Of a stretch of 64,000 nt of DNA, positions 48,652 to 64,000 are shown in pieces (the stretch's first letter is position 1; the number at the start of each line of letters is the position of its first letter). The translations under genes were made by a program, and so were the position numbers. The stretch comes from a virus (Duplodnaviria > Heunggongvirae > Uroviricota > Caudoviricetes): positions 20,510 to 84,509 of IMG/VR virus record IMGVR_UViG_3300045963_000248; one strand, given 5' to 3'. Below the pieces are notes generated by a model. That model was given only the letters and a program-made list of their open reading frames with translations, did not search any database and was not told the DNA's origin.

Positions 48652-48777
48652 TTTTACTCCTAAAGCATAGCAAAAGCTACACAAACAATTCCCAAAACAA
48701 AGTGACCAGTACAGAAACAAATTATAGCGGCAAAAAATAACATAAATCCCCCTTTGCAGTTCCTAGAGTTAGTATAC

Positions 48778-49290
48778 CTATTTTTCAGAAGCTGTCAAGT
48801 CTTTTATAAATCTACTTACACTTTGACGCGGAATTCCATATTTTCTAGATATCTGCATAACTTTTAAACCGTTTTGGAAGTCAATTCTAATCTCAGAAAT
48901 TAACTGAGGCTCGTGAGGTTTATCGCCTTTTTTAGAAACTGAATATCTAGATTTTCCAGCGACGTTATCGGTATTTTCTTTAGCTGATACCCATCTCAAA
49001 TTTGAAACGTGATTATTATTTTTATCTCTATCAATATGATCTATATATTTGTGATTTTCAGGATTAGGAATAAAAGCTTCGGCTACTAATCGATGAATGT
49101 ATTCTTGGTATAATTTAGGATTATACATTCCAACTTTCCAATAACCGTTACCGTTAGTAGAAAGCTTTAAATAAATTTCATTTTTAATTGAATAAACTTT
49201 ACCTGAGTCACAGATACAATAGTTCGGGCACTGAGGGATCACTTTCATGTTCATAAATACTCCTATGTTAATAGGACAAGTATAGCTCAA
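48778..49290 (-). CDS. HNH homing endonuclease (HNH_3 + C-terminal HTH)
   Basis: YWKVG...IHRLVAEAFIPNPENHKYIDHIDRDKNNNHVSNLRWVSAKEN; sits between polA and downstream genes. Confidence 0.8.
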   Translation of the reverse strand: MSYTCPINIGVFMNMKVIPQCPNYCICDSGKVYSIKNEIYLKLSTNGNGYWKVGMYNPKLYQEYIHRLVAEAFIPNPENHKYIDHIDRDKNNNHVSNLRWVSAKENTDNVAGKSRYSVSKKGDKPHEPQLISEIRIDFQNGLKVMQISRKYGIPRQSVSRFIKDLTASEK

Positions 49291-49314
49291 CTTTAGTAAG
49301 AAGTCAAGCTTTTT

Positions 49315-51807
49315 TTAGTGCCCATCTGCAAATGTACTAGCTATTTCGGGCACCGCAATTAACGGCATTAATAAAGTATTAGTATTTTCCATACTATCCT
49401 GCATAATTACTTTAGCCCGTTCCAAATCTTTAGACTCACAAGTTACTATTATTTGGTCATGTACGACTGCGCAAATCCAAGCATTCAGTTTTTCACGTTT
49501 AAATTTAACCGTCATATCAATCATAGCTCTACTAACTAGACTAGTAGCTGCAGATTGTATTGGAAAATTCAAAGCATTATTTAATAAATTATTGTATTCT
49601 TTTCTAATAAATTTTAATTCGCTTAAAGGCACATATTTAGTTTTTGCAATATTTATTAGTTTTCTAAAATCTAAAATATCATCTCCAAACTGTTTACGTA
49701 TTTCTACAATTCTTGGTAAATGTCTTATTCTGCCAAACTTTGAGGTAACTCTTCCTGTAGTTTTTACTTCCTTTAAGTATTTATCCATAGAGCGCTTTAA
49801 ACCGGGAAAAGCGGTAAAATAGTTATCTATTATTTCCTGCGCTTCTGAGGGTTCGATATTAAGCATCTTGGATAATTTATAATCCTTAAGACCGTAACGA
49901 ATTCCAAGGGCGTAAGCTTTAGCATTTTGACGTTTATCCGGATTTACTTTCTTTAAAAAGTTAGGTGCTTTTTTATCAGCAGATACACCTTCTAATTTCT
50001 CAGCTCCAATTGCTACCACTGAATACATATCTAAGTTATCTGTAAATATTTTTATAAGAGCGTCATCCCCTGCATCGTCAGCAAAGACTCGCGGTTCCAG
50101 AGATTCATAGTCATCGTCTAAGAATTTAAAACCTTCAGGCGCAATAAATAATTCACGCACTCGATCAGTATAAAATACAATACGTGGATCTTCGGGATCT
50201 CCCTCGTCTTCTTCTAATTGTTTCGGCAATTGCTGTAAATCACTTGAAAAACGTCCACTAGTAGTTCCATGTTGTTTAAAACTAGGATAAAAAATACCGT
50301 CTTCCTGTTGCTCCAAAAACCGTTCAAAATAGCTACCTTTTATTTTTGTAAGCTTATTAAAAACGCGCAATTCCTTTGCCCACGCTAAATCGTGTTCAGA
50401 AGCTAGCAATTCTATCATTTCCTCGTTAAACTGTGGCGCACCCTTTTCAGTTTTACTAATCGGCTTTATTCCCATTAAATCAAATACTATTTTACCTAGC
50501 TGCTGCTTAGAGCCAATATTTACAGCATGCTCGCTTCCCGTGGAAGCAATTAACAGTCTTTTTTGTATTTCATCAATTTCGTACTCCATAAGCTGATTGG
50601 CGAAATCTTTTAAAAACTCTACTGCTCGCAATTTATCTGGAGCTATGTAAAAATCAGAAGGAAATTGTAAACTCTTTTTAGTAATAGAGTATTTTCCCGC
50701 AGCAGTAAGCGGCAAAGGTAAATCAAAAAGTCTAGCAACTTCCTGCGCAAAGCTTCCCGTATTCTTAGGCGGGAATTCCTCTGCTAAACGCTGCTTTACA
50801 AATTCCTGTCCTGCGTCTGTAGCTAATATTGCAATAACAACATTTGTTTCTATTTTTTTAAGCTCTACGCCAATGTCAAAATTATACTGTTTTAGTTTTT
50901 CCATGTCTAAATGTACACCTTTGCTTTCCATTGGAATCGTACATAAAGTATACAGAGGCATTACTTCCTCTTCGTAAAAAAAGTCTACTAAGTTTTCTTC
51001 TGCCAATCTTGTATTTAGATACTGGAATAATCTGAGTGTAATATCCACGTCAGCGTTACAGTATTTAGCTATTATTGGCATATCGCCTTTATACATTTCT
51101 TTATTGCTTTTTAACCATTTTCCACCTTTAGCCTTTACATTTTGCTCCAATTCCAGTTGCTCCTGATTAGCTGCATCCTGACCGTCAAATTGCAATTCTC
51201 TGCTAAAGCGTACAGCAAGGTCTTTTAAGCCGAAATTAGATTCCTCGTCTAGGGTATGCTGCATTAAAACAGTATCAGCGTATAGCGCCGGAGAAAGGTC
51301 TATTCCGAAGTTACTTTTAGTAATTCGAATATCGAAACTTGCATTGTGCATTATTAGTTTCTTTTTTAGGAGTTCCCGAATTACTCTGTCAGCAGCTCCT
51401 CCCGGTTCCGTTACCCATGTTAAAATGTGATCTAGTGAATTCGGAGTCGGGAATCCTTCTTTGTATTCGTACAGCGGTAAATACCAAGCTTCTCCCGGGC
51501 ACCCGCACACAGCAAAGCCAATTACAGTATCTTTTCTGGTGTTTAATCCTGTAGTTTCAGTATCGTATGCTAAAATGTCATATTTTCGAATGTGAGCTAG
51601 CATCTCCTGAAAATCACTAGCATTCTGTACAACATTGTATTGCTTAAATTTAATTTTGTATAGCAGTAAATATTTAGAGGAAAACTCAAATTCGCATTCC
51701 TGAAAAATTAACTGATCGCCTTGGAAATACGGTTTTGTAAGTTCCCCGGCTGAAATTGCTTCCAACAAATCGCGGTATGCACTGTCTGAGTCTATACTAT
51801 AAATCAT
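49315..51807 (-). CDS. polA: DNA polymerase I (family A) with 3'-5' exonuclease domain
   Basis: exo I ILAYDTETTGL; motif A DYESLEPRV; motif B RQNAKAYALGIRYG; motif C VHDQ. Confidence 0.9.
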   Translation of the reverse strand: MIYSIDSDSAYRDLLEAISAGELTKPYFQGDQLIFQECEFEFSSKYLLLYKIKFKQYNVVQNASDFQEMLAHIRKYDILAYDTETTGLNTRKDTVIGFAVCGCPGEAWYLPLYEYKEGFPTPNSLDHILTWVTEPGGAADRVIRELLKKKLIMHNASFDIRITKSNFGIDLSPALYADTVLMQHTLDEESNFGLKDLAVRFSRELQFDGQDAANQEQLELEQNVKAKGGKWLKSNKEMYKGDMPIIAKYCNADVDITLRLFQYLNTRLAEENLVDFFYEEEVMPLYTLCTIPMESKGVHLDMEKLKQYNFDIGVELKKIETNVVIAILATDAGQEFVKQRLAEEFPPKNTGSFAQEVARLFDLPLPLTAAGKYSITKKSLQFPSDFYIAPDKLRAVEFLKDFANQLMEYEIDEIQKRLLIASTGSEHAVNIGSKQQLGKIVFDLMGIKPISKTEKGAPQFNEEMIELLASEHDLAWAKELRVFNKLTKIKGSYFERFLEQQEDGIFYPSFKQHGTTSGRFSSDLQQLPKQLEEDEGDPEDPRIVFYTDRVRELFIAPEGFKFLDDDYESLEPRVFADDAGDDALIKIFTDNLDMYSVVAIGAEKLEGVSADKKAPNFLKKVNPDKRQNAKAYALGIRYGLKDYKLSKMLNIEPSEAQEIIDNYFTAFPGLKRSMDKYLKEVKTTGRVTSKFGRIRHLPRIVEIRKQFGDDILDFRKLINIAKTKYVPLSELKFIRKEYNNLLNNALNFPIQSAATSLVSRAMIDMTVKFKREKLNAWICAVVHDQIIVTCESKDLERAKVIMQDSMENTNTLLMPLIAVPEIASTFADGH

Positions 51808-51912
51808 TAGTATCCTCCGTAAATAATAAACTGCATGTAGTTGTAGCTATGCGACACGGTAATTCCAACAACTAAAAAAGCAAATACTTTTTTCCAGTGG
51901 ACTGCCATAAAT

Positions 51913-52110
51913 CTATTTAATTTCATGTAAATCCTTTTGTATAAAATTAATCAATTGGATTCCTGTAGTTTTATTTATACTGAGTACACACTTGACTAAT
52001 TCAGTTACTTCTTCTTTGTCTCGCATTACTAATCTAATTTTCCCTGCGTTAGCGTTTACCCCAAAATCCGAAATGCTCTGTGCCATAATTTTAACGTGTG
52101 TTGTATTCAT
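51913..52110 (-). CDS. small hypothetical protein
   Basis: 65 aa. Confidence 0.4.
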   Translation of the reverse strand: MNTTHVKIMAQSISDFGVNANAGKIRLVMRDKEEVTELVKCVLSINKTTGIQLINFIQKDLHEIK

Positions 52111-52143
52111 TTTCTACCTCCCTTTGGTAAAAACAGAATAGCA

Positions 52144-52551
52144 TTAATTTAAAACTGTGTCAACTCTATCAACTAATTTATTGATATTATACATATTTAT
52201 CTTACCCCGAGTCCCCGGTTCGATTAGCTGCATTGCACGTAAATTTCGTAAAGCTTTCTCAAAAGTTTTATCGCACATATTTACGTTATAGCAATGGTGA
52301 TGCACTTTATTTCCCGGCTCTGCAGTATACAAATAATACAAAACAGTGAGATCTGCACCAGAGAGTATTTGCAATTGTTCCGGCGTAACCAGAGTGGGTA
52401 GCCAGCTCCGGGAAACCATTTCTGCTTCGTAAAAATATGTGGAAATAGTTTTTAGGTGTGTATTTAGCCTATTAGCTAATTCCTGTCTGCTAGCTCCGGG
52501 AAAAGCACGAATTCCTAAAGCTATTTTTAAAATAACGTAAGGTCTATTCAT
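52144..52551 (-). CDS. hypothetical protein, possible wHTH regulator
   Basis: 135 aa; ASRQELANRLNTHLKTISTYF helix-turn-helix-like. Confidence 0.4.
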   Translation of the reverse strand: MNRPYVILKIALGIRAFPGASRQELANRLNTHLKTISTYFYEAEMVSRSWLPTLVTPEQLQILSGADLTVLYYLYTAEPGNKVHHHCYNVNMCDKTFEKALRNLRAMQLIEPGTRGKINMYNINKLVDRVDTVLN

Positions 52552-52753
52552 TTTTTACTCCCGTAAGCATGTTTCCAATTTTATTTGCTAAATATAGAAT
52601 AATTACTGTAGCACAAACTGCTATAAAGTTTTTAGTATCAAAAACGTAATTCTGCTGTAGGTAAAATGCTACCTGTACTCCAATTGCTGCAGCTCCAGCT
52701 CCGAGGGAAATTAATGCTAATCCTAAAAGCGTATTTAGTATTTGTCTTTTCAT
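52544..52753 (-). CDS. small 2-TM membrane protein
   Basis: 69 aa hydrophobic. Confidence 0.4.
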   Translation of the reverse strand: MKRQILNTLLGLALISLGAGAAAIGVQVAFYLQQNYVFDTKNFIAVCATVIILYLANKIGNMLTGVKNE

Positions 52754-52761
52754 TGTTACTC

Positions 52762-52998
52762 CTAAAAGTATTTGTTCTTGCGCAAAAATTCTACGAAAAT
52801 TTTAGCGTCTTTTAGTTTTTTAAAGTATTTAATCTTACTTTTATTTTGTCTTTTGATGTGTACTTTGTAATACTCTATTCCTGTTATACACACTTTGAAC
52901 ACGTATTCTTTACCTATTCTTTTTTTAGTTGCCGACGTATTTACACCGTTGTGTAAAGGTTTTGGCAACCCGTAAATTTTCTCATTAATGTAATTCAT
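52762..52998 (-). CDS. small basic protein
   Basis: 78 aa, K/R-rich. Confidence 0.4.
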   Translation of the reverse strand: MNYINEKIYGLPKPLHNGVNTSATKKRIGKEYVFKVCITGIEYYKVHIKRQNKSKIKYFKKLKDAKIFVEFLRKNKYF

Positions 52999-54977
52999 TA
53001 AAATAACCCTCCGTCTGCTCCCGCAGCTTCTCTTTTTCTCTGTAAAAGTTCCTGTAATTCCTGTGCTTCAATTTCTTCCAATTCCCGCAGAGTTCCGCGT
53101 AAGCCGTTCCAAGCCAAATCCACGTGGAAAAGTTGCCCGGTACGATTTTTTACACAATCAATACTAAAATAATTATCAAACTCAGGAGTCCGGGAACTGT
53201 ATCCCGGTCTGTGAACTGTAAGCATAGCTGTAACTGCCTGAGCAACGCTGGCAGAGCCTTTAGCAGCGTTATAGCTTGTAATAGGCTGATCTACAGTACT
53301 AGACATTTTATTAGGCTGTAATAGCACTATGACGATTTTATTTGTATTTATAGCAATTTCCCGAAGTCCTTGGATAACTTCCGCAGAAGCTTGCGTAGGG
53401 TCGGAATATTTTGACTGTACGAGTTCCAGATAGTCAACAATAATTAAGGGGATGTCGATACCGAGGAGCTGTTCTCTTTTGACAATACTCTCTTTAATCT
53501 CGTCAATACTCTGACCTGTCTTGAAAACGAAGGATACATTAGCGTAATTATCCTGTAAAATATCGTGGACCTTTTTGATTTCCAAATGATTATCAGAAGT
53601 ATAAATGTCGTAAAGCTCATCTCGTTTCATTCCAGTATGTCTTTGTGTAAGCTTTTGTATCACATCATACTGAGACATGTCAAATGAAAAGAACATACTA
53701 TGGTAACTATTTTTACTAGTATGATTTATCATATTTAAAGCAAGGGAAGTTTTACCCGATCCCGGAGAGCCGAGAATACTATAAAGCCTTCCACGCTGGA
53801 AATTTAACTGTCTGTCTAAAGCGGGAATACCTACCTGCATAGTGTTTTCATCTATGTTTTTAGCATAGTGGATAAATGCTTCGTACCCTTCTCCAATCCC
53901 TACTACGTCTCGCATATCCTGTTGTTTTATAGAAGCAGGAATATGTGCATTAATTTTTTGTAATAGTGCATCAGTTTTTACAGAATAAGTTCCCCCGAGC
54001 CAAAGCGGAGAGTAAATCTGAGTAATAATGTTTTTCCAAATTTCATCTTTAGAAAATTTATCTGATCCGGTGCGAGCACTTTGTAAATCGGCTGCAGCTT
54101 TCAGAGCGTAGTAATTATGAGTTTCGTCCATTCCCATAGCTTTATTACTAGCACCTAAAATCATTAGCGCGTGGGAGCGTTCCCCCGCTTCGAAATAGCC
54201 TAAGCTCAGTGCGTATTTTTCCGGGGAGAGCTTATCTGGTTTTTTTGTCCAATCAATTTTAGAGAAATCTAAATCCGGAGTAATTTCGGAAAGTGTCTTT
54301 TCAATTTTAGGAGTTGCATCCTTCAGCTTCTTCAGGATGCCTGGCAAAGCTGCAGGAAGCCATGCTCCGGCAATATCGTCGGGTGTATAGTTTATTTTAG
54401 CATTAGCTTTCACTACGTCCACTGTTGAATTTAGGTCAGCAATTGAACAAGGTATTTTGTATAGCCCGGTATCTTTGTGTCTCGTTAAAGGGATTCTAAA
54501 GATCCTAGTAGCGTTATAAATACTAGTATCAAAAGATTTTAAACCTTTTGCCAAATTTGACGCAATGTTTTTAGCTTCTGTAGGTGTTAAGAAAGTATCT
54601 TTTAGTTCCACGGAAACTTCGAATCCTTTGCTCCCGGAAAAGAATATCTGAATCGATTCCTCGGGAATCCCGTTCTGCTTTAGACGGGAAATGATTTCTT
54701 TTGCATCGTCTCGTGCTAAATCTGGATTATCTTCTGGATCTTTTGGATTTGGTCGGTGATCAAAATCGAAAGCTAGTTTATTGGTAATTACGTCTTTCAT
54801 TCCAGCAACGCTACCACGCTCTGAAAACTCTTTAAATTGGTTTTCGTTAAACAGATATATCGATTTATAGAAATCTCTATCTAGTGTCGGTAATTGACTA
54901 TAAACGTCTGTGGTAACTGGTATTAGTTTACCTTTATCAGTTAAGCTGTCGCAGAGTCTGTAATACAGTTGTGTCAT
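52998..54977 (-). CDS. bifunctional primase-polymerase (AEP-like) / DnaB-type helicase
   Basis: N-terminal KLAFDFDH (DxD); C-terminal Walker A GSPGSGKTS and Walker B LIIVDYLE. Confidence 0.85.
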   Translation of the reverse strand: MTQLYYRLCDSLTDKGKLIPVTTDVYSQLPTLDRDFYKSIYLFNENQFKEFSERGSVAGMKDVITNKLAFDFDHRPNPKDPEDNPDLARDDAKEIISRLKQNGIPEESIQIFFSGSKGFEVSVELKDTFLTPTEAKNIASNLAKGLKSFDTSIYNATRIFRIPLTRHKDTGLYKIPCSIADLNSTVDVVKANAKINYTPDDIAGAWLPAALPGILKKLKDATPKIEKTLSEITPDLDFSKIDWTKKPDKLSPEKYALSLGYFEAGERSHALMILGASNKAMGMDETHNYYALKAAADLQSARTGSDKFSKDEIWKNIITQIYSPLWLGGTYSVKTDALLQKINAHIPASIKQQDMRDVVGIGEGYEAFIHYAKNIDENTMQVGIPALDRQLNFQRGRLYSILGSPGSGKTSLALNMINHTSKNSYHSMFFSFDMSQYDVIQKLTQRHTGMKRDELYDIYTSDNHLEIKKVHDILQDNYANVSFVFKTGQSIDEIKESIVKREQLLGIDIPLIIVDYLELVQSKYSDPTQASAEVIQGLREIAINTNKIVIVLLQPNKMSSTVDQPITSYNAAKGSASVAQAVTAMLTVHRPGYSSRTPEFDNYFSIDCVKNRTGQLFHVDLAWNGLRGTLRELEEIEAQELQELLQRKREAAGADGGLF

Positions 54978-55195
54978 TTTTGTTCCTTCTTTAAAATTAA
55001 TTCAGCTTCTTTAATTGCCTGTCGTGTGGTTAAATAGTCGTGCATTGCCATCATCGCATTTGCAAACCAACCAAGCATTAAGCCTTCGTCAATATCCTCT
55101 ATTTTCCAATTTTGTTCTTTTTTGGTTCGCATAAAAAAATCAGCCCACACTTTCGCATCTGGACTAAAATGTATATTCTTATCATAATCACTCAT
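54974..55195 (-). CDS. small hypothetical protein
   Basis: 73 aa. Confidence 0.4.
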   Translation of the reverse strand: MSDYDKNIHFSPDAKVWADFFMRTKKEQNWKIEDIDEGLMLGWFANAMMAMHDYLTTRQAIKEAELILKKEQK

Positions 55196-55211
55196 CTCTA
55201 ATCCTCCTCTG

Positions 55212-55568
55212 TTATTCTAAAAATATTGCTTCACCGAATTTGGTGTAATCTATTAAGTTACTTTTATATCCCTTGGGACACAATCCCTTTTCATCGCATA
55301 GGTAATTAAGCACAATCCCGTCCCTATTATTCACCCACTGATAATAAGCCTTCTTTTCTTTTGGTGGAGTGTGGATTGACCAGTCTTCGGGATATTCAAA
55401 AATGTAATTATTCCTCGTCCACGAAGAGTCGCCAGGGAATTGTCTCATTATTTGACCATCTACTAATTTAACTATGTGAGTTTTATTTGATATTTCTTTT
55501 CCACTTAACAACGCTTCCATTAATTCTTTTTGTGAGTTCATTTTAGTTCTCCTACTTCCTTTAACCAT
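55212..55568 (-). CDS. hypothetical protein
   Basis: 118 aa. Confidence 0.45.
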   Translation of the reverse strand: MVKGSRRTKMNSQKELMEALLSGKEISNKTHIVKLVDGQIMRQFPGDSSWTRNNYIFEYPEDWSIHTPPKEKKAYYQWVNNRDGIVLNYLCDEKGLCPKGYKSNLIDYTKFGEAIFLE

Positions 55569-55960
55569 TGTTTTTCAACCTCTGTCGGATAATCTTTTTC
55601 TACAAAATATGATTTCGCTTGCTCAAGAAGTTTGTCTCTCTTTTGGATTTCATTTTCATACGAATTATATTTATATTTCTTCACTTGACATGAAACAGTC
55701 CCAGAATCATTGGATAAGAAATTTTCACAATGGTAATTCATGGAATTATTTAAATCATATTTCAACTTATCTATTTCTTCCTGCGCTTTTTTACGAGCTT
55801 TGGCATAAGCAAGCCATGCTTCATGTGTATCGAAATCTACATAGTCATCTATGCTGTGTGGGTATCTTTCAAGTTGAAGATCCCTAGGCGAGTCATTATT
55901 AAGCACATAAATCTCAAACTCCTCTCTCCACTTATTCTCTAATTCATCTTGTGAGTTCAT
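55538..55960 (-). CDS. hypothetical protein
   Basis: 140 aa. Confidence 0.45.
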   Translation of the reverse strand: MNSQDELENKWREEFEIYVLNNDSPRDLQLERYPHSIDDYVDFDTHEAWLAYAKARKKAQEEIDKLKYDLNNSMNYHCENFLSNDSGTVSCQVKKYKYNSYENEIQKRDKLLEQAKSYFVEKDYPTEVEKQWLKEVGELK

Positions 55961-56221
55961 TTATTCTCCTTTGTCGAATAGCTTTTCTTTAAGATTTAAA
56001 AAATCTAAACTGGAATTTGTTCCAAATGTGTTCATGAATATTTCACTAAACTCACTCTCTGTTATTTCAATTTTCTTTTCAGGTAAATCAAAGGTGACTG
56101 TTATTTTGTGTTTATGACAATGTTCCTTTTCTCTAACTGGGTAGGCATAAGGTAAAAAATTGCCTTCTTTTAAAATATCTATACCTCTATCGCAAGTCCA
56201 AAACTCTTTTGTCGTTTTCAT
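55961..56221 (-). CDS. small hypothetical protein
   Basis: 86 aa. Confidence 0.4.
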   Translation of the reverse strand: MKTTKEFWTCDRGIDILKEGNFLPYAYPVREKEHCHKHKITVTFDLPEKKIEITESEFSEIFMNTFGTNSSLDFLNLKEKLFDKGE

Positions 56222-56241
56222 TCATCCTCCTTTTAAGGGCA

Positions 56242-56511
56242 CTAGTTTTCTTCTTCTCTTTTTACTCTGTTACGGTGCAGTTCCCGCTGAGTTTCTTTTA
56301 CAGCTAAATCAAATCCTTCAAATTTACCCATCTGTATTCTTTCGAAATCAATAGCTGTTTGAATATTTTCCTGAGTAGTAGGATCTGTAGTATTTTCCAT
56401 AGCTACATTTAAATTATCGTTAGTGTTTTTTAATTCAGCTAGAGTGGGATTTTTACCGCAACTAGCTAATAGTGTTAATATTATTATGCTACGCATTTGA
56501 ATGTCCCCCAT
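56242..56511 (-). CDS. small lipoprotein
   Basis: MRSIIILTLLASC lipobox. Confidence 0.4.
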   Translation of the reverse strand: MGDIQMRSIIILTLLASCGKNPTLAELKNTNDNLNVAMENTTDPTTQENIQTAIDFERIQMGKFEGFDLAVKETQRELHRNRVKREEEN

Positions 56512-56729
56512 TTTTTTAGTTCTTTAAAGCTAGCTTCTAATTCCAGTTTTTCATCTATTAAACTTACGTATCTTTCGAATACAATTTGTCTATCTTTGGA
56601 ATTGTGAATTATATCCATATATTCCTCGATTAACTTAATCTCACTTAACAAATTATCATACTTTTTTACCATTACATAGCTAATTTGCATAAACCCTCCT
56701 ACTCGTATTCCCCATTTATACGCGCCCAT
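56484..56729 (-). CDS. small hypothetical protein
   Basis: 81 aa. Confidence 0.4.
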   Translation of the reverse strand: MGAYKWGIRVGGFMQISYVMVKKYDNLLSEIKLIEEYMDIIHNSKDRQIVFERYVSLIDEKLELEASFKELKKWGTFKCVA

Positions 56730-56950
56730 TCCTCGATTACAGCAACTTCGTGCATAGTTTCGCGGAATCTTTTCTCAAATCTTGGTATTAAATCTGACAG
56801 GTGTGAATTGTCCTCTTCCAGCTCCGGGTGTAAATCTATAAGTGCGTTTATAGCAACTTCTGGATCGTCACAGGATACTCTGTAAAGGTCTGTACAGATT
56901 TCGTAAAGCTCACTGTTGGGTACGTTCTGAATGTATTCTTGTATTTTCAT
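56699..56950 (-). CDS. small acidic protein
   Basis: 83 aa. Confidence 0.4.
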   Translation of the reverse strand: MKIQEYIQNVPNSELYEICTDLYRVSCDDPEVAINALIDLHPELEEDNSHLSDLIPRFEKRFRETMHEVAVIEEWARINGEYE

Positions 56951-56989
56951 TTTTCCCCCTAATTCAGTGTATCATATCTAAAAAACATG

Positions 56990-57172
56990 TCAAGCTTTCT
57001 TTTTTAAAATCTCACTTGGCGGCAAATTCATTAACTTATTTTTTACAGGTTTTGTTTTATTCCTAGATAAATACTTGGAAATAGCTATTTGAGTTTCTCG
57101 TATCATTTCGTCCCACTCTCTCCGAATGCGAGATCCCGGAGGAAACCAATCGTCTATGGTCAGCTTAGCCAC
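56990..57172 (-). CDS. small basic protein
   Basis: 60 aa. Confidence 0.35.
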   Translation of the reverse strand: MAKLTIDDWFPPGSRIRREWDEMIRETQIAISKYLSRNKTKPVKNKLMNLPPSEILKKKA

Positions 57173-57180
57173 TTAAACTC

Positions 57181-57206
57181 CAAAAAGCCGGATTTTAGGC
57201 TCCGGC
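57181..57206 (-). terminator. intrinsic terminator on minus strand (GCCGGA-loop-TCCGGC + U-run)
   Basis: 6-bp stem 57187..57192 / 57201..57206; A-run 57181..57186 on + strand; downstream of 57241..57513. Confidence 0.5.
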
Positions 57207-57240
57207 AAACCTCTACGCCTATCATTTGGCTTTTAGGGAC

Positions 57241-57513
57241 TTAGCCCAATTTAACTAGTAATCTTCTTTTTAACTGTGGAGATTCTTTAGCCTGTGCTTC
57301 ACGCATAGTTTGCTTAAATTCCTCAGTGCTTTTCGGAGAGTTAAAAATCCTTTCGTATTTTGCTTTTGGGTCCTCAACTTGGATTTTCATTCCTTTTTTT
57401 AATTCAATATCTTTAAATACTGAAATCTGTAGGAATTTCTCACCTGTTTGCGAGTTTACATTTTCGTACAATGCTGCGAATTCTACTGGATAATTTGATT
57501 TTACTTCTGACAT
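57241..57513 (-). CDS. hypothetical protein
   Basis: 90 aa, downstream of ERF. Confidence 0.45.
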   Translation of the reverse strand: MSEVKSNYPVEFAALYENVNSQTGEKFLQISVFKDIELKKGMKIQVEDPKAKYERIFNSPKSTEEFKQTMREAQAKESPQLKRRLLVKLG

Positions 57514-57522
57514 TTTTTACTC

Positions 57523-58113
57523 CTAAATACCTAAATCATTTTCAGATTTAGCTGTTGTTTTATTTCTTGAAAAGCTTGGTGCTTTTACTGTTGCTTTTGC
57601 TGCAGAATCTGTGAGTTTTGGCGGTGTATTCCCATCGGCTAAAGTTGCAGCAGTAGATAATTTACCTTCTGGTAAGTTAGGTGCGGAAGCCTTCACTACT
57701 ACAGCTTGCGGAACAGGTCTAGCTTCTGTGCTAGCGTCGGTATCCTCAGATGCCATGCCTAAAATAGCTTGCAAACTGTATCTTCTTAAATACGAAATAG
57801 CTGCACCGGCTTTTTGAGTTACATTTATTTTATTCATTTCTGGAATACCAATACTGGATTCCTCTGAAATGTATTGTCCAGATTTATGTAATAAAATAGT
57901 TGTCAGGGAAACTTCCGTAAGTGTAGATTTACCTACAAGTTGAGTTACCGATAAACCATTTTTTTCTAACACTGGCTTTGCTGTCGCTAAAACGCTAGCA
58001 AGGTCGGAGTAATTGTATCCGTATCCTGAGCTGTCTTTTTTAGCTGTGGAAAGTTCTGCTTGAGCTAACGCTAACGCTGCTCCAATTTCGTTTAAGTTTT
58101 CTGATGTTCTCAT
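57523..58113 (-). CDS. ERF-family single-strand annealing protein
   Basis: SGYGYNYSDLASVLATAKPVLEKNGL resembles P22 Erf N-terminal motif (FGKYKYRSCEDILEGVKPLL). Confidence 0.6.
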   Translation of the reverse strand: MRTSENLNEIGAALALAQAELSTAKKDSSGYGYNYSDLASVLATAKPVLEKNGLSVTQLVGKSTLTEVSLTTILLHKSGQYISEESSIGIPEMNKINVTQKAGAAISYLRRYSLQAILGMASEDTDASTEARPVPQAVVVKASAPNLPEGKLSTAATLADGNTPPKLTDSAAKATVKAPSFSRNKTTAKSENDLGI

Positions 58114-58904
58114 TATTTTCCTCCTACGTGGATTTGTAAATTCGCATTTGAATTTCCAATTGCTTTATTAAAATCTTTTCTGACTTCGTAATCTAAATAG
58201 TCTCGCATTCCGATTCCGTAACGACTAGCTACTTCAGCTTTTACTTTCATTTCTGCATCCAGTAATTCTTTACGCATTGCTACCTGCTCCTGCTGAGCTT
58301 TAATTTCTAACTGCTGATTTCGGGTAACTTGAATTAACTGTAATGATTTCTCAATGTCAGCATTTAATTTTATAGTATTCAAATTCACACGAACGATTCT
58401 GAAAATGTCACCATATTGCTCATTAATAGTTTTTTGTAAAGCTTCTTTAATTTCATCCTCGATCGCTACTCGGTTCGAAGTAATATCTTTAGATTTAAAA
58501 CGTGCTACAGATTTTTGCAATTCGTTTACAAAAGCTTTCTGTAAAATATTATAACCTAAAACGTCATTAGCATTCCCGTTCTCATCTTTAATTCTAGCAA
58601 TGCTTTTAGTTTTTTTGTAAAAAGCAATTACCTTTTCTGGGTTTGTATCAAAAGTTAAATTTGCGTCTAACTCCTGTAATGGAATACTGTCAGCATCCCT
58701 CGCAGTAACGTTATCAGCATGTACGATATTTTGAGTTAAATCTATTGTCTGCATAGAATCTAAAACAACAAATTCAAAACCTGAAGTACGAATATCATCG
58801 TTAATTCTTCCCGAAAAGGTTGTGACGATTCCCGCTTTTCCTTGCTCCACGTAACTACAGCTTGCTAAACTAAATAGCAAACTAATTAATACTACTAATT
58901 TCAT
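58113..58904 (-). CDS. SPFH/band-7 (stomatin/HflK-like) domain lipoprotein
   Basis: lipobox LASC; SPFH-like core GKAGIVTTFSGRI...FEFVVLDSMQ...; coiled-coil C-terminus. Confidence 0.65.
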   Translation of the reverse strand: MKLVVLISLLFSLASCSYVEQGKAGIVTTFSGRINDDIRTSGFEFVVLDSMQTIDLTQNIVHADNVTARDADSIPLQELDANLTFDTNPEKVIAFYKKTKSIARIKDENGNANDVLGYNILQKAFVNELQKSVARFKSKDITSNRVAIEDEIKEALQKTINEQYGDIFRIVRVNLNTIKLNADIEKSLQLIQVTRNQQLEIKAQQEQVAMRKELLDAEMKVKAEVASRYGIGMRDYLDYEVRKDFNKAIGNSNANLQIHVGGK

Positions 58905-58905
58905 T

Positions 58906-59079
58906 TTATACTCCCAATATTGCTAATTCTTCCACGGTAATTCGGGAAAAATCAGTTGTTGAATTTCTTACTTTAAATTTAGCTCTAACTAAATGTTTCT
59001 TTTTTAGCTTACCAGTTTTACTGCCAAACATTTTTGCTAAAGTGCGTTTGTGTACTTTTTTTAAGTCCTCAATTTTCAT
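58906..59079 (-). CDS. small basic protein (57 aa, below ORF-track cutoff)
   Basis: AGGAGA SD 5 nt upstream; MKIEDLKKVHKRTLAKMFGSK... Confidence 0.4.
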   Translation of the reverse strand: MKIEDLKKVHKRTLAKMFGSKTGKLKKKHLVRAKFKVRNSTTDFSRITVEELAILGV

Positions 59080-59249
59080 TTTTTCTCCTGTTGTAATTTA
59101 TCTATTCTATTTGAGCACAGCATGGTATAGTCGAAAGCTAAAAGTATTATTACCACTTTAATCTGTGCGCTAAGCTCCGGACTAAACAATAGCACAAAAA
59201 TTAATACAAAGTCAAGCGCTAATTTTACTTGGTACATTTTAGATTTCAT
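59076..59249 (-). CDS. small TM protein (57 aa), ATGA-coupled to neighbours
   Basis: MKSKMYQVKLALDFVLIFVLLF... Confidence 0.35.
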   Translation of the reverse strand: MKSKMYQVKLALDFVLIFVLLFSPELSAQIKVVIILLAFDYTMLCSNRIDKLQQEKK

Positions 59250-59401
59250 AATTCACTTCCTAGAATTGTAATCCAAAGTATAACTAAAAATCCTATTACT
59301 GTTTTTGGAAATGTAATTACTAAAAAGATACCTAATCCAATAAAACTTAAAAATAAAACGCCTACGCAAAAACTTAAAAATAACTCTACTAAACTATTCA
59401 T
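59246..59401 (-). CDS. small 2-TM protein (51 aa), start overlaps stop of nuclease gene
   Basis: MNSLVELFLSFCVGVLFLSFIGLGIFLVITFPKTVIGFLVILWITILGSEL. Confidence 0.35.
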   Translation of the reverse strand: MNSLVELFLSFCVGVLFLSFIGLGIFLVITFPKTVIGFLVILWITILGSEL

Positions 59402-60269
59402 TTTCGTCCACCTTTTCGTAAATATCGGCTCCGAAACCGGAACCGAAACAATGCGAGTAAAAAGGACATTTCTTTCCAAACGCAAAGCATCCTTTTTTAT
59501 TTTTAGCAAAACTTCTTTTACTAATTTTTGTAAAAGCTTTACTGAATTTTTCCAGAGTTTCCGCGATCAGTTCCGGCGGAGGCTCCCCGACAATAATTTG
59601 TGTACTGAAATCTTTTTTATTTATTGTGAGAAATCCTACAAATTTGTATTCTGGATACGCTGCATTGTATAGCGCAGTCTGTTCTTTTGTTTTAAAACTG
59701 TTCTTCGGGTACGGCGCTGAAGTAGATTTATTATCTAAAATAGCTGCAACAATGCTACCGTCTGGTAACTGTATTTCAGCAATTAAGTCGATAATTCCCC
59801 GAACCAATCCGCCTTGCTTCGGGAACGGTATTTGGAATTCTTTCTGTACAGCAATTACACGAATAATTTTAGGCAGAATGTGTTCCGCGTAAGCTTCCAA
59901 CATTTTTAGCCCTTTTGCTTCCATGCTAAAAAAATGCTCGTAATGTGCTCTTTTGTTTGCGTCTGTTACTCCGGCAATATCCCACTGAACTTCGTCGTCT
60001 ACAATTTCCAGCATTAAATCTGACTTGTAATAGTCAATATTAAAATTCTGCTCGTGCTGTAGCCAGTTATCGATAAACGCTTGTTTAGCTTTTTCCAGAT
60101 TACGTTCCAATAAAAGTATGTTTAGTGCCTCGTCGTAAGCATTCCCGAAAAGTAGCGCAGAAGAAGTTAGAATACTCCTGTAACGTTTTTCGTAATGTAA
60201 TTCGTATTTGTATCCGCACGTCTCCAGAGTTTCTCGGGCACTGTGGCTAAGTTTCTGTATTTTACCCAT
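59394..60269 (-). CDS. PD-(D/E)XK nuclease, Cas4/RecB-like with Cys4 cluster
   Basis: N-terminal LETCGY Cys plus C-terminal CFAFGKKCPFYSHC; pairs with ERF. Confidence 0.65.
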   Translation of the reverse strand: MGKIQKLSHSARETLETCGYKYELHYEKRYRSILTSSALLFGNAYDEALNILLLERNLEKAKQAFIDNWLQHEQNFNIDYYKSDLMLEIVDDEVQWDIAGVTDANKRAHYEHFFSMEAKGLKMLEAYAEHILPKIIRVIAVQKEFQIPFPKQGGLVRGIIDLIAEIQLPDGSIVAAILDNKSTSAPYPKNSFKTKEQTALYNAAYPEYKFVGFLTINKKDFSTQIIVGEPPPELIAETLEKFSKAFTKISKRSFAKNKKGCFAFGKKCPFYSHCFGSGFGADIYEKVDENE

Positions 60270-60366
60270 TAAAAATACTCCTAAAAATAGCCCTAGCTAC
60301 CAAAAATGCTACAGCAAAAACAAAACCTAAAACAATTACGCTAACTGCGCTTGCTAAAAAATGCAT

Positions 60367-60570
60367 TTATAACTCCTCTATATGAACAATTTCAGCCCAG
60401 GAAGATTCAGCTTGCGAAGCTTCTAATATTATCTTCCCCAATACTGTCTTGTCTCTTACGACATAGACTTCTTCCGGATCACCTACTGTTGAATAAAATT
60501 CTAAATTATAAATATTACCAATTAATTGCACAGCTTTGTTATCTATAATTTTTGACGTAATAACTTGCAT
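60367..60570 (-). CDS. small hypothetical protein
   Basis: 67 aa. Confidence 0.35.
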   Translation of the reverse strand: MQVITSKIIDNKAVQLIGNIYNLEFYSTVGDPEEVYVVRDKTVLGKIILEASQAESSWAEIVHIEEL

Positions 60571-60694
60571 ACTATCTCCTATTTTTCATCTATAAAAATC
60601 CTAATTATGGCTCGTCCGGCAATGTATGCTAAAACGCTAATAAATCCAAAAATAACTATACCTAAAATACTTTCTAAAAAATTCACAATAACTC

Positions 60695-61135
60695 CTAAAA
60701 CTGTAACCGAATCCCGGCTCCAATTCTTTTTTCTGTATCACCAGTAAGAAAAACACTTACCTTGCTAGCTACTGGAACATCCACTAAAACGCCGTAGTCA
60801 GGCTTTTTTAGCTTAATATCAGATAGAGCGTAAACTCCTAGGCTGATTCCATTTTGACTCACTATACGCTCGTTTAGCGTCTCGTGTGTCGAATTCGATA
60901 CAGTATCTATTACTCCTGTATCTGTAATTGTTGTCGTATCCGTCTCAGCTCCCGAAGGATCTTTTACGTGTACAATTTTCGTCACCGTATTCTTTTTTTC
61001 TTTTACAACTTCTTTAACTTCCACTTTTACAACTTCCCGCGTTTCGATTTTAGTTTTGTGTGGCAGTAAAAAATACCCTACTGCTACTCCAGCAAGAGCT
61101 GTAATTGCTGTTAACTTTAATTGTTTTAAATCCAT
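60695..61135 (-). CDS. membrane-anchored protein with beta-rich C-terminus ending in Phe (spanin-like?)
   Basis: N-terminal TM LTAITALAGVAVGYFLL; ends GIRLQF. Confidence 0.4.
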   Translation of the reverse strand: MDLKQLKLTAITALAGVAVGYFLLPHKTKIETREVVKVEVKEVVKEKKNTVTKIVHVKDPSGAETDTTTITDTGVIDTVSNSTHETLNERIVSQNGISLGVYALSDIKLKKPDYGVLVDVPVASKVSVFLTGDTEKRIGAGIRLQF

Positions 61136-61136
61136 T

Positions 61137-61520
61137 TTAAATCTCCTGTTTGCAGTCCGGACAAACCCAAAACTGTAAGTTAGCTGATATTTTATTTAAA
61201 TACTTTTTTTTATGTTGGCATCCTGTACTTATTTGTACTCCGGGATGCCAAGGTGTTCCGTCTAACGCTAATTCTAACTCAAAGAGTAATTCGTCTGCTT
61301 CTGAATTGTATTTCTGCGTCGTAACAGTAAAGCCTCTACCTAAATATGTACTACTCGATACTGTAAGATTGTCAGCAATACTTCCGGGATTCCCGCAGCC
61401 GTATCCGAATTCTCCTATGTACCATCCTACAAATTCTGTTTTACCATTTAGCTCTTCCACTTTTTGTCCGTTCTCTGTAATTATGTATTGCATATTATGC
61501 TCCTTGTAAATAAAAGGCAC
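61137..61520 (-). CDS. hypothetical protein with C-terminal zinc ribbon
   Basis: GCQH...VCPDC. Confidence 0.45.
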   Translation of the reverse strand: MPFIYKEHNMQYIITENGQKVEELNGKTEFVGWYIGEFGYGCGNPGSIADNLTVSSSTYLGRGFTVTTQKYNSEADELLFELELALDGTPWHPGVQISTGCQHKKKYLNKISANLQFWVCPDCKQEI

Positions 61521-61544
61521 CTTGCGATGCCTTCTACGTATAGT

Positions 61545-62276
61545 CTACATCATTATTGTCCAAAAGTCATCACTCATATTACGATTTTGTATAACTTTAA
61601 ATGGCATCCAAAAATAGCCATTTTGACCCCAATCGTCTCCCCACGAGTTTTTAACTAGTAACATCTTTTTATGAGTATTGTACCCTATAGCAACTACTGC
61701 ATGCCCTCCGGCTGCTCTTTCCAATAGTTTAGGGTAAGGCATTATTCCAGTATTAGCAACTTCCTCAGTTAGGAAAGATTCATATACTGTAAATCCCATT
61801 ACTATGCCGTGCCCGGAAGCTATACAATCTAGCATTTCTTTTAGATTACTTACCCGGCGGTAACTTAGAAGTTTTCTATGCATTGCGTTTGCATAAGCCA
61901 GTGCGGAAGGTTCTTTTTTAAATGCCTCCACAATATATGGGTAAAACTGTTCAGAGCAAGCTCCAACTTTAGCGCATGCTTTTATCCCGTCTCGAATCGA
62001 TGCTCCGGAATCATTACTAATCGAGCCTTCCAGTTTTCGTTCCTGAAAGTAAATAAATAAAGCAGAGATTTCAGTTTTAGCTACTAACTCTTCTTCAATT
62101 AAACTTGCAATTGCGTTTCCAGTACACGAGCCTAAATCCCCCTGATCTTTTATAGCGGAATCTTCGTCTCGTAAATCCATAGATACTGGAAGTTTCATAT
62201 TTGACATTTTATATTTTAGATCTCTGTGATCTGGTAAATCTGGTAGCCATTTTTTTGCTATTTTAAAATTTTGCAT
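61545..62276 (-). CDS. papain-family (C1) cysteine peptidase
   Basis: catalytic Cys QGDLGSCTGNAIAS, His GGHAVVAIGY, Asn KNSWGDDWGQNGYFWMPF: canonical C1 triad context. Confidence 0.75.
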   Translation of the reverse strand: MQNFKIAKKWLPDLPDHRDLKYKMSNMKLPVSMDLRDEDSAIKDQGDLGSCTGNAIASLIEEELVAKTEISALFIYFQERKLEGSISNDSGASIRDGIKACAKVGACSEQFYPYIVEAFKKEPSALAYANAMHRKLLSYRRVSNLKEMLDCIASGHGIVMGFTVYESFLTEEVANTGIMPYPKLLERAAGGHAVVAIGYNTHKKMLLVKNSWGDDWGQNGYFWMPFKVIQNRNMSDDFWTIMM

Positions 62277-62282
62277 ATATTC

Positions 62283-63074
62283 CTATGGTGCCGTTACAGT
62301 TGCATGGTCGAGCGTGACTGCAGTCTGTGCTAATAATCTTCCATTAATTGTTGCTCCTGTTTGCATTGCAATTAATGTTTGGGAAAGTATATTCCCTTCC
62401 ATGTGTGCTCCTGTACCTACAGTTACAACATCTCCTACGACAAAGAAAATATTCTTAGCTTGGATTCCTCCAGTTAAAATTATATGCATTCCAGAAGCTA
62501 CAGTAACTCCTCCGGCAATCTGTAAAATAATTACATCTTCAGATCCTCCGTTAAAATAAACATCAGAGGCAATTAGTAAACCAGTTCCCCATTTGTATAG
62601 TCCAGGTTCCAAAGTTAGTCCACTAATATTTCCACTAGCTAATTCAGTTGCATCCGGATTAGGTCTGCCCATAGCATCGGTGTAAGCTGCTTCCATATCT
62701 GAAACTGCAGTAGTTAAATTACTCGGAGTCGGGACTGCGTAATTCGCAGCATAGATTTTTCCAGTAACTTGAGCTGAAGTTGAGAAAACATTTGAAGCAT
62801 CGGCTACTAAAGAAAATCCTGTAATAAAAGATGCAGCGGCGGGACTCACTCCTAAATTTCCAGTAATAGTCGAAGGCACCACTGTTGAAATTGCAGCCTT
62901 TGCTAGGATTACAAAATTACCTGCAGTACGCAAGTTTACTGGATCTGGTCCAGCCATTTGTCCGGGATTCTGAGTGTGACCGGAGTCTGCTCCACTCGGC
63001 GGAGAGTCGCTTCCGCAACTTGTTAGCAATAGCAATCCAGCTAGGATTACAATCGCCATTTTTAACTTTTTCAT
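62283..63074 (-). CDS. DUF3494 (ice-binding-like beta-helix) lipoprotein
   Basis: lipobox LLLTSC; LRTAGNFVILAKAAISTV...ITGNLGVSPAA and C-terminal repetitive beta-helix typical of DUF3494. Confidence 0.65.
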   Translation of the reverse strand: MKKLKMAIVILAGLLLLTSCGSDSPPSGADSGHTQNPGQMAGPDPVNLRTAGNFVILAKAAISTVVPSTITGNLGVSPAAASFITGFSLVADASNVFSTSAQVTGKIYAANYAVPTPSNLTTAVSDMEAAYTDAMGRPNPDATELASGNISGLTLEPGLYKWGTGLLIASDVYFNGGSEDVIILQIAGGVTVASGMHIILTGGIQAKNIFFVVGDVVTVGTGAHMEGNILSQTLIAMQTGATINGRLLAQTAVTLDHATVTAP

Positions 63075-63155
63075 TTTACTTCCTTGTTTAAATATATATA
63101 ACCTACAAAATAAGTTATAAATACACCGTACAGGTCTACGTCAGATTTGTCAACG

Positions 63156-63347
63156 TTAAAGCTTAGACTTGCTATCAATCAACAAATAAGCATAGCCAAA
63201 CGCAATCATTAACCCGAACCAAACACAAGAAAGTAAACCGAATCCAGCAGAAGCTCCATAATTTTCCATAAATGCAAAGTAAATAGTTGTTACAGTGCAA
63301 GCTAGAAAAGCTCCAGTACTAAATAATGATAATACACTTAAAATCAT
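63156..63347 (-). CDS. small 2-TM protein, holin candidate
   Basis: 63 aa, two hydrophobic helices, charged C-terminus DSKSKL; near peptidase. Confidence 0.4.
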   Translation of the reverse strand: MILSVLSLFSTGAFLACTVTTIYFAFMENYGASAGFGLLSCVWFGLMIAFGYAYLLIDSKSKL

Positions 63348-63721
63348 CTTCCAATCTCATATTTAGAGTTTAAGTAACTCAGTTCGTAATAAGCTCTTGT
63401 TCTATTTTCAAAAAGTTCCCGGGAAACTTCTTGCACTTCCAGTTTAGCATTTATTAAAATACGAATCACCGCAAACTTGTCACCAATCGGGGCAACAAAA
63501 GCATTTTCAATTGCGTCTGCTACTTCTGTTTTATTTAATAATCTTTCATGTTCTAAAAATAAAAACTGCAATGCGTCTGCTTTTAAAGAAGCGTTACCGT
63601 TTGCATAAACGTATCCTGCATCGTTTAGCAATGCCATTAGCTCACGAGAACTAACTCCTAATTCTTTTGCTTTGTCACTTAATTTTACTGCACTTCCAAA
63701 ATTACTCATTAAATACTCCAT
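63344..63721 (-). CDS. hypothetical protein
   Basis: 125 aa. Confidence 0.45.
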   Translation of the reverse strand: MEYLMSNFGSAVKLSDKAKELGVSSRELMALLNDAGYVYANGNASLKADALQFLFLEHERLLNKTEVADAIENAFVAPIGDKFAVIRILINAKLEVQEVSRELFENRTRAYYELSYLNSKYEIGR

Positions 63722-63863
63722 CGATTTGTTGCGGCGTTAAATTATTCTGTATTACTGTAACTGCTACTGAAAATTCCAGCATGTCGTTTACGATAACTTC
63801 GTTTTTCTCATTTTTAGTAGCTATTGCTAGCTTTACAATTTCCAATGCTTTTTCCAATGTCAT
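63702..63863 (-). CDS. small hypothetical protein (start at ATG 63863 with AAGGGAG SD; track ORF extends to 63920)
   Basis: gaaaaagggagcataaaATG. Confidence 0.35.
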   Translation of the reverse strand: MTLEKALEIVKLAIATKNEKNEVIVNDMLEFSVAVTVIQNNLTPQQIDGVFNE

Positions 63864-63864
63864 T

Positions 63865-64000
63865 TTATGCTCCCTTTTTCCAGAACTGATTTGTGAACGT
63901 TTTTGTGGCATGCTGTGCATGTTTTACATTATGTGTTACTAATTTATTAAATACCGTTACAGAGCTGTCTAAATACTGTTCCGCAGCTTCGGAATGCCCT
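63865..64000 (-). CDS. partial CDS (C-terminal part; begins right of window)
   Basis: open frame to window end, stop overlaps downstream ATG (TAAAATG). Confidence 0.3.
   Translation of the reverse strand, partial: GHSEAAEQYLDSSVTVFNKLVTHNVKHAQHATKTFTNQFWKKGA

Follow-up and report, generated by a model that had tools for sequence, protein, structure and literature searches.

A DUF3494 lipoprotein gene and a C1 peptidase gene form a mobile accessory unit in the early arm of a Caudoviricetes phage

Introduction

Ice-binding genes of the DUF3494 family serve as a textbook example of horizontal transfer, having spread through bacteria, archaea, fungi, algae and even rotifers (PMC7783341, PMC6892780, PMC11912409), and the literature that we found on this transfer does not name the vehicle. 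Most characterised members carry an N-terminal secretion signal (PMC9957290), and DUF3494 has come to be seen as a general surface-binding fold (PMC11645318, PMC12337378). On Arctic viral operational taxonomic units (vOTUs), 'Ice-binding-like' (PF11999) genes, three annotated genes given without gene context, have been proposed as cryoprotective auxiliary metabolic genes (AMGs) (PMC11515562). Similarly, the transfer of C1A cysteine peptidase genes of the xylellain type into Caudoviricetes has been reported (PMC10380794); what xylellain itself cleaves is not known (PMC12090721). Here we analyze a 64,000-nucleotide stretch of a Caudoviricetes virus (IMG/VR record IMGVR_UViG_3300045963_000248, positions 20,510 to 84,509), called the window throughout, in which one gene of each kind stands next to the other on the minus strand at 61545..63074.

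A preliminary description of this region, made from the letters alone, offered two readings: a non-canonical lysis cassette, or a DUF3494 lipoprotein acting as a surface, adhesion or exclusion factor. Extra genes with their own promoter and terminator between backbone genes, as in lambdoid phages, are known as morons. We consider it probable, though well short of certain, that 61545..63074 is a two-gene mobile accessory cassette of this kind, and that its lipoprotein is an accessory envelope factor and not lysis machinery. Genes of either type, DUF3494 and xylellain-type peptidase, had already been known from phages. What is new in detail is their linkage in a mobile cassette, of which we found no earlier report in the literature, and a lipoprotein clade carried by phages.

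The pair and its two proteins

The open reading frames (ORFs) and motifs of the preliminary description are all present on the minus strand. The two genes at the center of this work are, in order of their reading direction:

62283..63074, minus strand: cassette gene 1, a DUF3494 / IBP-1-fold lipoprotein of 263 amino acids (aa), assigned by Pfam, PDB and lipobox
61545..62276, minus strand: cassette gene 2, a xylellain-type short C1A cysteine peptidase of 243 aa, assigned by Pfam, PHROG and PDB

The DUF3494 protein is laid out as a signal peptide with lipobox, a Pro/Gly/Ser-rich linker (about residues 21-45) and a β-solenoid domain (46-263). The Pfam family Ice_binding (PF11999) matches with an E-value (E) of 3.4e-67 and 226.6 bits (cut-off 28.7) over profile positions 1-208 of 208. 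Among 25 PDB sequences at E ≤ 0.001, the best solved relative is the ice-binding protein 4NU3 (E 1.1e-70); LeIBP, TisAFP and ColAFP are likewise matched, the range being E 1e-70 to 1e-50, and identity to proteins with solved ice-binding protein (IBP) structures is 55-60%. The N-terminus, MKKLKMAIVILAGLLLLTSC, is a lipoprotein-type signal, in which the lipobox LTSC (residues 17-20, Cys20) follows MKKLK and the hydrophobic run MAIVILAGLLL. Hydrophobic segments and lipoboxes were computed from sequence, the latter by regular expression. Since its first ~35 residues combine a positively charged n-region with a hydrophobic h-region and a lipobox, the protein is predicted to be a bacterial lipoprotein, and most close homologs also carry a lipobox. 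Both the domain and the lipoprotein type had been named correctly at the outset.

The peptidase is equally well defined. Peptidase_C1 (PF00112) covers residues 29-227 (E 4e-18, 66.7 bits, cut-off 20.7), PHROG 16701 'peptidase' matches with E 8.6e-23, and xylellain (3OIS) is by far the closest solved relative (E 1.9e-47; runner-up 7e-11). The complete papain catalytic context noted earlier is borne out by a 25-sequence alignment, across which Q45, C51 (GSCTGNA), H192 (GGHAV), N210 (NSWG) and W212 are invariant. The protein has no signal peptide, hydrophobic segment or I29 pro-domain; Pfam returns PF00112 with a weak C1_2 match only, and no wall-binding domain. Its start lies 6 nucleotides (nt) past the DUF3494 stop codon, with an AGGA that overlaps that stop, and the gene is probably translationally coupled to the one before it.

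Searches for the peptidase family returned 3,949 relatives. The best of them are 47-53% identical, 245-280 aa long and devoid of signal peptides; their sources include Methanoperedens, Nitrospira, Syntrophales and Ignavibacteriota, among many more. Homologs at about 50% identity occur as a stand-alone gene in archaea (Methanoperedens, Conexivisphaerales) and across bacterial phyla. These archaea have, to our knowledge, no murein, and we know of no muralytic role for the C1A family; such conservation in archaea makes murein hydrolysis an unlikely function for it. In 80 cellular genomes the gene has no conserved neighbours save chagasin-like inhibitor genes in 4/80 loci, which would fit an active protease. 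The preliminary description called the peptidase rare as a phage lysin. Rarity among phages holds for GenBank, where 7 of 50,697 phage records have a relative, and fails for IMG/VR, in which a relative is encoded on at least 470 viral stretches. A distant C1 domain (29% identity) is also part of a 753-aa protein annotated as 'endolysin' in Alicyclobacillus phage MMB025.

Close relatives of the locus are harder to find. A tblastn search with the DUF3494 protein against the 50,697 GenBank phages matched nothing, nor did blastn with window 57000..64000 against the same set, and single-protein scans of IMG/VR for close relatives of either the C1 or the DUF3494 protein found none.

Presence, absence and mobility

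Comparison with related phage contigs separates the pair from the genes around it. The relevant gene orders, with 2TM for a 63-aa protein with two transmembrane (TM) segments, are:

Window: 72aa-125aa-2TM-[DUF3494-C1]-118aa-146aa
L272 (50-kb contig) and L273 (81.9-kb contig): 72aa-125aa-2TM-118aa-146aa-exonuclease (PDDEXK)...ERF...DnaB-PolA, with no DUF3494 and no C1 gene there
L006: 72aa-125aa-2TM-117aa-146aa-[DUF3494-C1], proteins 33-77% identical to those of the window
L007: [DUF3494-C1], then an unrelated 159-aa gene

The siblings L272 and L273, of which 16 kb of each genome was covered, are close to the window phage (DnaB 84-86% and PolA 66-83% identical) and lack the pair at the syntenic site; in L006 it stands on the other side of the 117-aa and 146-aa genes. 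These orders identify the 2-TM, 118-aa and 146-aa genes as backbone and the DUF3494-C1 pair as an accessory unit. The pair is a mobile accessory unit in the early and recombination arm of the genome. Its two genes, separated by 6-15 nt, move together in three contexts and leave a remnant in a further one.

This remnant is found in L274, where the DUF3494 gene has an identity of 67% overall and of 74% within the aligned domain. Directly after this intact gene, a 45-codon ORF (L274 1380..1517) is 52% identical to the C1 N-terminus and stops just before the catalytic QG.LGSC motif; nothing C1-like follows. The longer contig of L274 has a Phage_portal (PF04860) gene and an M15_3 gene, and its portal type differs from that of the window phage. 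Context and remnant together indicate that the cassette moved between phage backbones and that at least one of them lost the protease and kept the lipoprotein; C1 is thus dispensable in at least one lineage. DUF3494 genes without C1 are found in L274 (remnant only), L275 and L276.

Outside this group the two genes hardly meet. DUF3494 was found within 6-8 kb of a C1 homolog in 0/80 cellular genome loci, 0/80 metagenome loci and 1/80 viral loci, the sole exception being L244, in which a 1035-aa protein with a DUF3494 domain is encoded about 2 kb upstream of C1. Conversely, no C1 gene or remnant stands beside 23 other viral DUF3494 loci. The neighbour surveys therefore confine the pairing to the closest relatives.

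Both cassette genes are under purifying selection. The ratio of nonsynonymous to synonymous substitution rates (dN/dS) between phage copies is 0.09-0.13 for the DUF3494 gene and 0.16-0.21 for the C1 gene, similar to the 0.10-0.18 of backbone genes; dS is near saturation, which makes these ratios rough. GC content at third codon positions (GC3) is 0.25 and 0.28 for the cassette genes against a genome mean of 0.26, and this rules out a recent transfer from a high-GC donor.

A phage-borne DUF3494 clade

The contigs of five close homologs of the DUF3494 protein were examined, and all five are phage-like:

P0122: L006
P0125: a contig with portal and M15_3 genes
P0128: L275, with two ClpP genes and an SU10/P22-type portal
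P0129: a dense array of small ORFs and RNase H
P0141: L276, about 91 kb, with DUF2201, SLT, PD-(D/E)XK, ERF and DnaB

In a neighbour-joining tree these homologs and the window protein fall into a 9-member clade, which is a clade of lipoprotein-type DUF3494 genes on at least six different phage contigs. The phage copies are 60-70% identical to cellular lipoprotein homologs of many phyla.

Two further arrangements were seen on viral contigs. At L276 7614..9265 an SLT-domain protein (119 aa), the DUF3494 lipoprotein (275 aa) and a 128-aa protein with an N-terminal membrane segment follow each other, an order superficially like that of endolysin, lipoprotein and anchored protein. We considered a rule by which phage DUF3494 genes adjoin murein hydrolase genes, taken from L276 and the P0125 contig, and dropped it after a Pfam census of the neighbours in 13 further viral loci turned out heterogeneous, with one SLT only. 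On the 84.9-kb viral contig L180, a more distant relative of the window phage (major capsid protein 40% identical), the DUF3494 domain forms the C-terminal half of a 419-aa protein with no lipobox (5389..6648). Its gene has the major capsid gene (with an HNH insertion) on one side and a gene for a 610-aa fibre-like protein on the other, and the fold may be part of the virion there.

Genome context and the lysis question

The window is organized in two arms. Packaging and structural genes occupy the plus strand at 685..40640 (Terminase_6N, SU10/P22-type portal, SU10 adaptor), and replication and recombination genes the minus strand at 40632..64000 (PolA, DnaB, ERF, PD-(D/E)XK exonuclease). Identical copies of the C1 peptidase sequence are found on two contigs, of 84,509 and 83,281 bp, which are circular permutations of each other relative to the window. 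Window 1..6763 corresponds to L003 9317..16079 and window 64000..53702 to L005 9921..20219, both with 100% identity. From the record coordinates of L003 and L005 we calculated a genome of about 84.3 kb. The window makes up 64 kb of this, and our inspection covered the whole phage genome except for about 1.1 kb. A unit of this length on permuted contigs suggests terminal redundancy or a circularly permuted genome.

A canonical endolysin is encoded elsewhere in the genome, a finding that the preliminary description had itself listed as counting against the lysis cassette:

1..129, minus strand: start of the endolysin gene, its first 43 codons (translation; Peptidase_M15_3, 134 aa), the remainder lying past the window start

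The full gene is located at L003 9041..9445, that is, window -275..129. The gene is cut by the window start and hence not visible as an ORF in the window alone. Its 134-aa product matches PHROG 894 'endolysin' (E 3.8e-39) and Pfam Peptidase_M15_3 (PF08291, E 1.2e-19), and contains SAHMSGLAAD and FVHVD, which we take to be the zinc-ligand motifs of this enzyme class. The gene lies just upstream of the first plus-strand gene, from which it diverges. No further muralytic Pfam family was detected among the 75 window ORFs, and neither Pfam nor PHROGs recognised a holin or spanin family anywhere in the genome.

Some small proteins elsewhere in the window have features of interest in this context. 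Two 91-aa proteins without family match, encoded at 685..960 (+), the first gene and divergent from the endolysin, and at 40365..40640 (+), the last gene of the structural arm, each combine one membrane segment with a coiled-coil-like part and are candidate lysis accessory proteins. Among the small early genes, 56242..56511 (-) encodes an 89-aa lipoprotein (lipobox LASC) that is weakly conserved in L272 (35% identity). By its size it is a possible o-spanin, with no partner identified.

As for the phage itself, no integrase family was seen in the Pfam census of window ORFs or in the flanking loci L003 and L005, which makes lysogenic conversion unlikely. The nearest GenBank phage is a Silvanigrella phage, with a terminase identity of only 26.5%. 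Several encoded lipobox proteins suggest a diderm bacterial host.

Cassette boundaries and neighbouring genes

Two elements flank the cassette:

63075..63155, minus strand: intergenic region of 81 nt upstream of the cassette; a TTGACA box lies some 75 nt ahead of the ATG
61510..61537, minus strand: terminator-like hairpin right after the C1 stop codon, with a 12-bp stem and a GCAA loop, its 3' arm and tail rich in U

RNA folding gives the hairpin -16.8 kcal/mol (z -5.4), matched by 0/200 shuffles. In L007 a different hairpin of equal strength follows C1 (-16.5 kcal/mol, z -4.6), and both are putative terminators. On the upstream side, alignment with the region upstream of the L006 copy places a TTGACT at the matching position.

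The backbone genes around the cassette are:

63156..63347, minus strand: 63-aa protein, outside the cassette, with two hydrophobic segments (residues 1-19 and 39-57)
61137..61493, minus strand: 118-aa protein, outside the cassette, probable start ATG 61493 with AAGGAG upstream
60695..61135, minus strand: 146-aa protein, outside the cassette, with one N-terminal hydrophobic segment (residues 6-24), ending in RLQF

The 63-aa protein had been called holin-like. Its two hydrophobic segments are there and are compatible with a class II holin, though not specific for one; the label itself finds no backing, as Pfam, PHROGs, NCBIfam and PADLOC give no family match. Homologs of its gene adjoin homologs of the 125-aa and 118-aa genes in L006, L272 and L273.

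The 118-aa gene was initially listed as a 127-aa ORF (61137..61520). That ORF exists; its start is most likely ATG 61493, the one chosen by both source gene callers, and the alternative GTG at 61520 falls inside the hairpin. The protein has a lineage-specific N-terminal part, a C-terminal Cys/His module of 30 residues that resembles a zinc ribbon, and no hydrophobic segment. HMMER with the 127-aa ORF against 1.84 billion representatives returned 56 relatives, most of which match only the last ~30 residues; the search gave no functional lead, the zinc-ribbon-like end alone being widespread.

The 146-aa protein is TM-anchored and ends in RLQF, as first described. Its family comprises 19 homologs, all of 144-149 aa and confined to this phage lineage, and their alignment shows an N-terminal anchor (GxAVGYFLLPHKTK), a β-rich C-terminal part and an invariant terminal Phe. 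The β-rich end and terminal Phe are reminiscent of an outer-membrane β-signal. An AlphaFold model built with the 19 homologs has a predicted local distance difference test (pLDDT) score of 52.7 and is too poor for interpretation. No PHROG or Pfam family matches, and an alignment-based IMG/VR scan for the family found none. PADLOC assigned none of nine cluster proteins to a defence-system family.

Further along the early arm, 58113..58904 (-) encodes an SPFH/Band 7 lipoprotein (lipobox LASC) between a 57-aa gene and ERF. In L272 and L273 this gene is absent from that position and the 57-aa homolog directly abuts ERF. About 5.3-6.5 kb past the window end, L005 3423..4618 leaves ~1.2 kb without called genes in an otherwise dense early region; this stretch could hold an origin, genome ends or regulatory repeats. 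Signs of homing endonucleases, and possibly of an intein-like element, in the window comprise Hom_end_hint, HNH_3, HNH and NUMOD3 matches in the Pfam census, and the sibling L273 has additional HNH genes between backbone genes. Finally, a ClpP-family protease at 41306..42085 (-), a head maturation protease by PHROG, begins with a signal-peptide-like hydrophobic N-terminus, MFKKMLIIAALLLSFSVAAE. Such an N-terminus is unusual for a prohead protease, and the gene also sits on the replication-side strand.

Discussion

Seen as an accessory cassette, the pair would work as follows. The DUF3494 protein, to judge from its signal peptide and lipobox, would be exported by the Sec pathway and lipidated at Cys20, leaving it tethered by a flexible linker to the envelope of the infected diderm host. 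Its β-solenoid would then bind ice or another extracellular surface, and as a cryoprotective or adhesive envelope factor the lipoprotein could benefit the infected cell and hence the phage. Within this reading we regard cryoprotection itself as a tentative option, with rather less than an even chance. The C1 protease, which has no export signal, would act in the cytoplasm on host or phage proteins. The surface factor of the preliminary description is consistent with all of these results, and we keep it in this general form.

Several observations weigh against the accessory-cassette reading or its parts. DUF3494 and C1 are tightly linked in three or four contexts, a hint of a functional connection for which this explanation does not account. 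With 16 kb covered in each sibling genome, the siblings could carry DUF3494 and C1 at some other site. The composition of the cassette is not foreign-looking by GC3. On the side of transcription, the consensus promoter scan, at its thresholds, reported no site in 63075..63155 and no consensus -10, so that the putative promoter consists of the -35-like box only. Ice binding in particular is put in question by the IBP_CFB model of NCBIfam (NF045625), for which the protein scores 233.5 bits, under the equivalog cut-off of 400, and by the spread of DUF3494 through non-freezing habitats, where its role is not known (PMC11645318). With regard to lysis, the genome has no recognised holin or spanin, the M15_3 gene is the first in an operon for nucleotide metabolism and not part of a classical lysis cassette, the small membrane proteins may have a lysis-related role, and in two other phages a DUF3494 gene abuts a murein hydrolase gene (M15_3 in one, SLT in L276).

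These last points bear on the first of the alternatives, a non-canonical lysis cassette in which C1 is an endolysin that cuts peptide stems or Lpp-type links, the 63-aa protein a holin, and the DUF3494 or the 146-aa protein, or both, spanin-like. Such a cassette would account for a 2-TM protein, a lipoprotein, a hydrolase and an anchored protein within 2.7 kb; it gains from the missing holin and spanin families, from the 'endolysin' of phage MMB025 with its distant C1 domain and from the two phages with M15_3 or SLT beside a DUF3494 lipoprotein gene. Nevertheless, the canonical M15_3 endolysin, the stand-alone C1 family, the absence of the pair from the siblings and its relocation in L006 together cause this reading to fail. 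The pair has no constant place with respect to the 2-TM, 118-aa and 146-aa genes, C1 has decayed to 45 codons in one phage that retains an intact IBP gene, the C1 protein carries neither export signal nor wall-binding domain, its family is ~50% identical in Methanoperedens and Conexivisphaerales archaea, the cluster is located among early and recombination genes, and the DUF3494 neighbours in 13 IMG/VR loci are heterogeneous, with a single SLT. We consider a lysis cassette extremely unlikely. An exclusion function, in which an early lipoprotein blocks the phage's receptor or another envelope component as T5 Llp or Cor proteins do, would prevent superinfection and the loss of progeny on cell debris, with the protease as an unrelated passenger or an aid in host takeover. 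It agrees with a lipoprotein in the early arm of an apparently virulent phage, with the second accessory lipoprotein of the SPFH/Band 7 type, present only in this phage as compared with its siblings, and with the view of DUF3494 as a general surface-binding fold (PMC11645318, PMC12337378). However, copies that are 60-70% identical to cellular lipoproteins of many phyla and under strong purifying selection favour an ancestral function over adaptation to one receptor. The same lipoprotein clade occurs in phages with different portals and tail modules, for which a common receptor is unlikely, and PHROGs and PADLOC show no similarity to known exclusion lipoproteins. On this evidence exclusion is an unlikely explanation.

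The linkage of the two genes could also mean that they form a two-component module. A protease released at lysis might clip the linker and shed a soluble ice-binding protein, or it might mature or regulate the lipoprotein. The gap of 6-15 nt and the common movement through three contexts and one remnant speak for such a module, as do the unrelated viral contig L244, with its DUF3494 domain ~2 kb upstream of C1, and 12/80 viral loci in which C1 directly follows the gene of a Gly/Ser/Thr-rich fibre-like protein. The surveys point the other way: 80 cellular, 80 metagenome and 79/80 viral C1 loci have no such adjacency, 23 other viral DUF3494 loci have no C1 gene or remnant, and the IBP persists without C1 in L274, L275 and L276; moreover, the predicted compartments of the two proteins differ until lysis. 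We find this module distinctly unlikely. A more far-reaching version, which we rate as very unlikely, is a phage envelope module on a dedicated phage-borne clade that hops between unrelated backbones, where the lipoprotein would coat the cell and the protease would free it at lysis, protecting debris, virions and neighbouring hosts from ice recrystallisation. If true, such phages would be vectors of the horizontal spread of DUF3494.

Irrespective of mechanism, a phage DUF3494 clade maintained by selection, together with a mobile cassette, provides a concrete and testable candidate vehicle for the transfer of these genes. It also offers material for asking whether phages invest in the freeze or surface protection of their hosts. 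For annotation, the case calls for caution, in that a hydrolase beside a small membrane protein and a lipoprotein is a lysis cassette only if synteny and the rest of the genome agree.

Comparison with known systems

Compared with the holin-endolysin-spanin cassettes of diderm phages, the cluster is alike in having a 2-TM protein, a hydrolase, a lipoprotein and an anchored protein close together. It differs in that its hydrolase is from no family known as muralytic, the phage has an M15_3 endolysin encoded apart from it, there is no fixed unit of genes and the pair is dispensable in siblings. Spanin lipoproteins are short, whereas the DUF3494 lipoprotein is a 240-residue β-solenoid.

The individual proteins have closer counterparts. 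With the IBP-1 ice-binding proteins FfIBP (4NU2/4NU3), LeIBP (3UYU), TisAFP (3VN3) and ColAFP (3WP9), the DUF3494 protein shares the full-length PF11999 match and the N-terminal secretion signal; unlike them it is phage-encoded, a lipoprotein instead of freely secreted, and below the IBP_CFB equivalog cut-off. The peptidase shares with xylellain of Xylella fastidiosa (3OIS) and the 'short bacterial C1A' type the catalytic residues, a near full-length match and the absence of a classical pro-domain, whereas its N-terminus is shorter, it is phage-encoded and its gene is coupled to a DUF3494 gene. The PF11999 AMGs of Arctic vOTUs are likewise phage-borne (PMC11515562); here the gene belongs to a lipoprotein clade on at least six contigs, with presence and absence among siblings, purifying selection and linkage to a protease.

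As a genetic element, the cassette most resembles phage morons, with which it has in common presence or absence at the same site, a strong hairpin behind it and an otherwise collinear backbone. It departs from them in having two genes, a genome-like composition and a promoter that is putative only, and in residing in a phage with no detected integrase.

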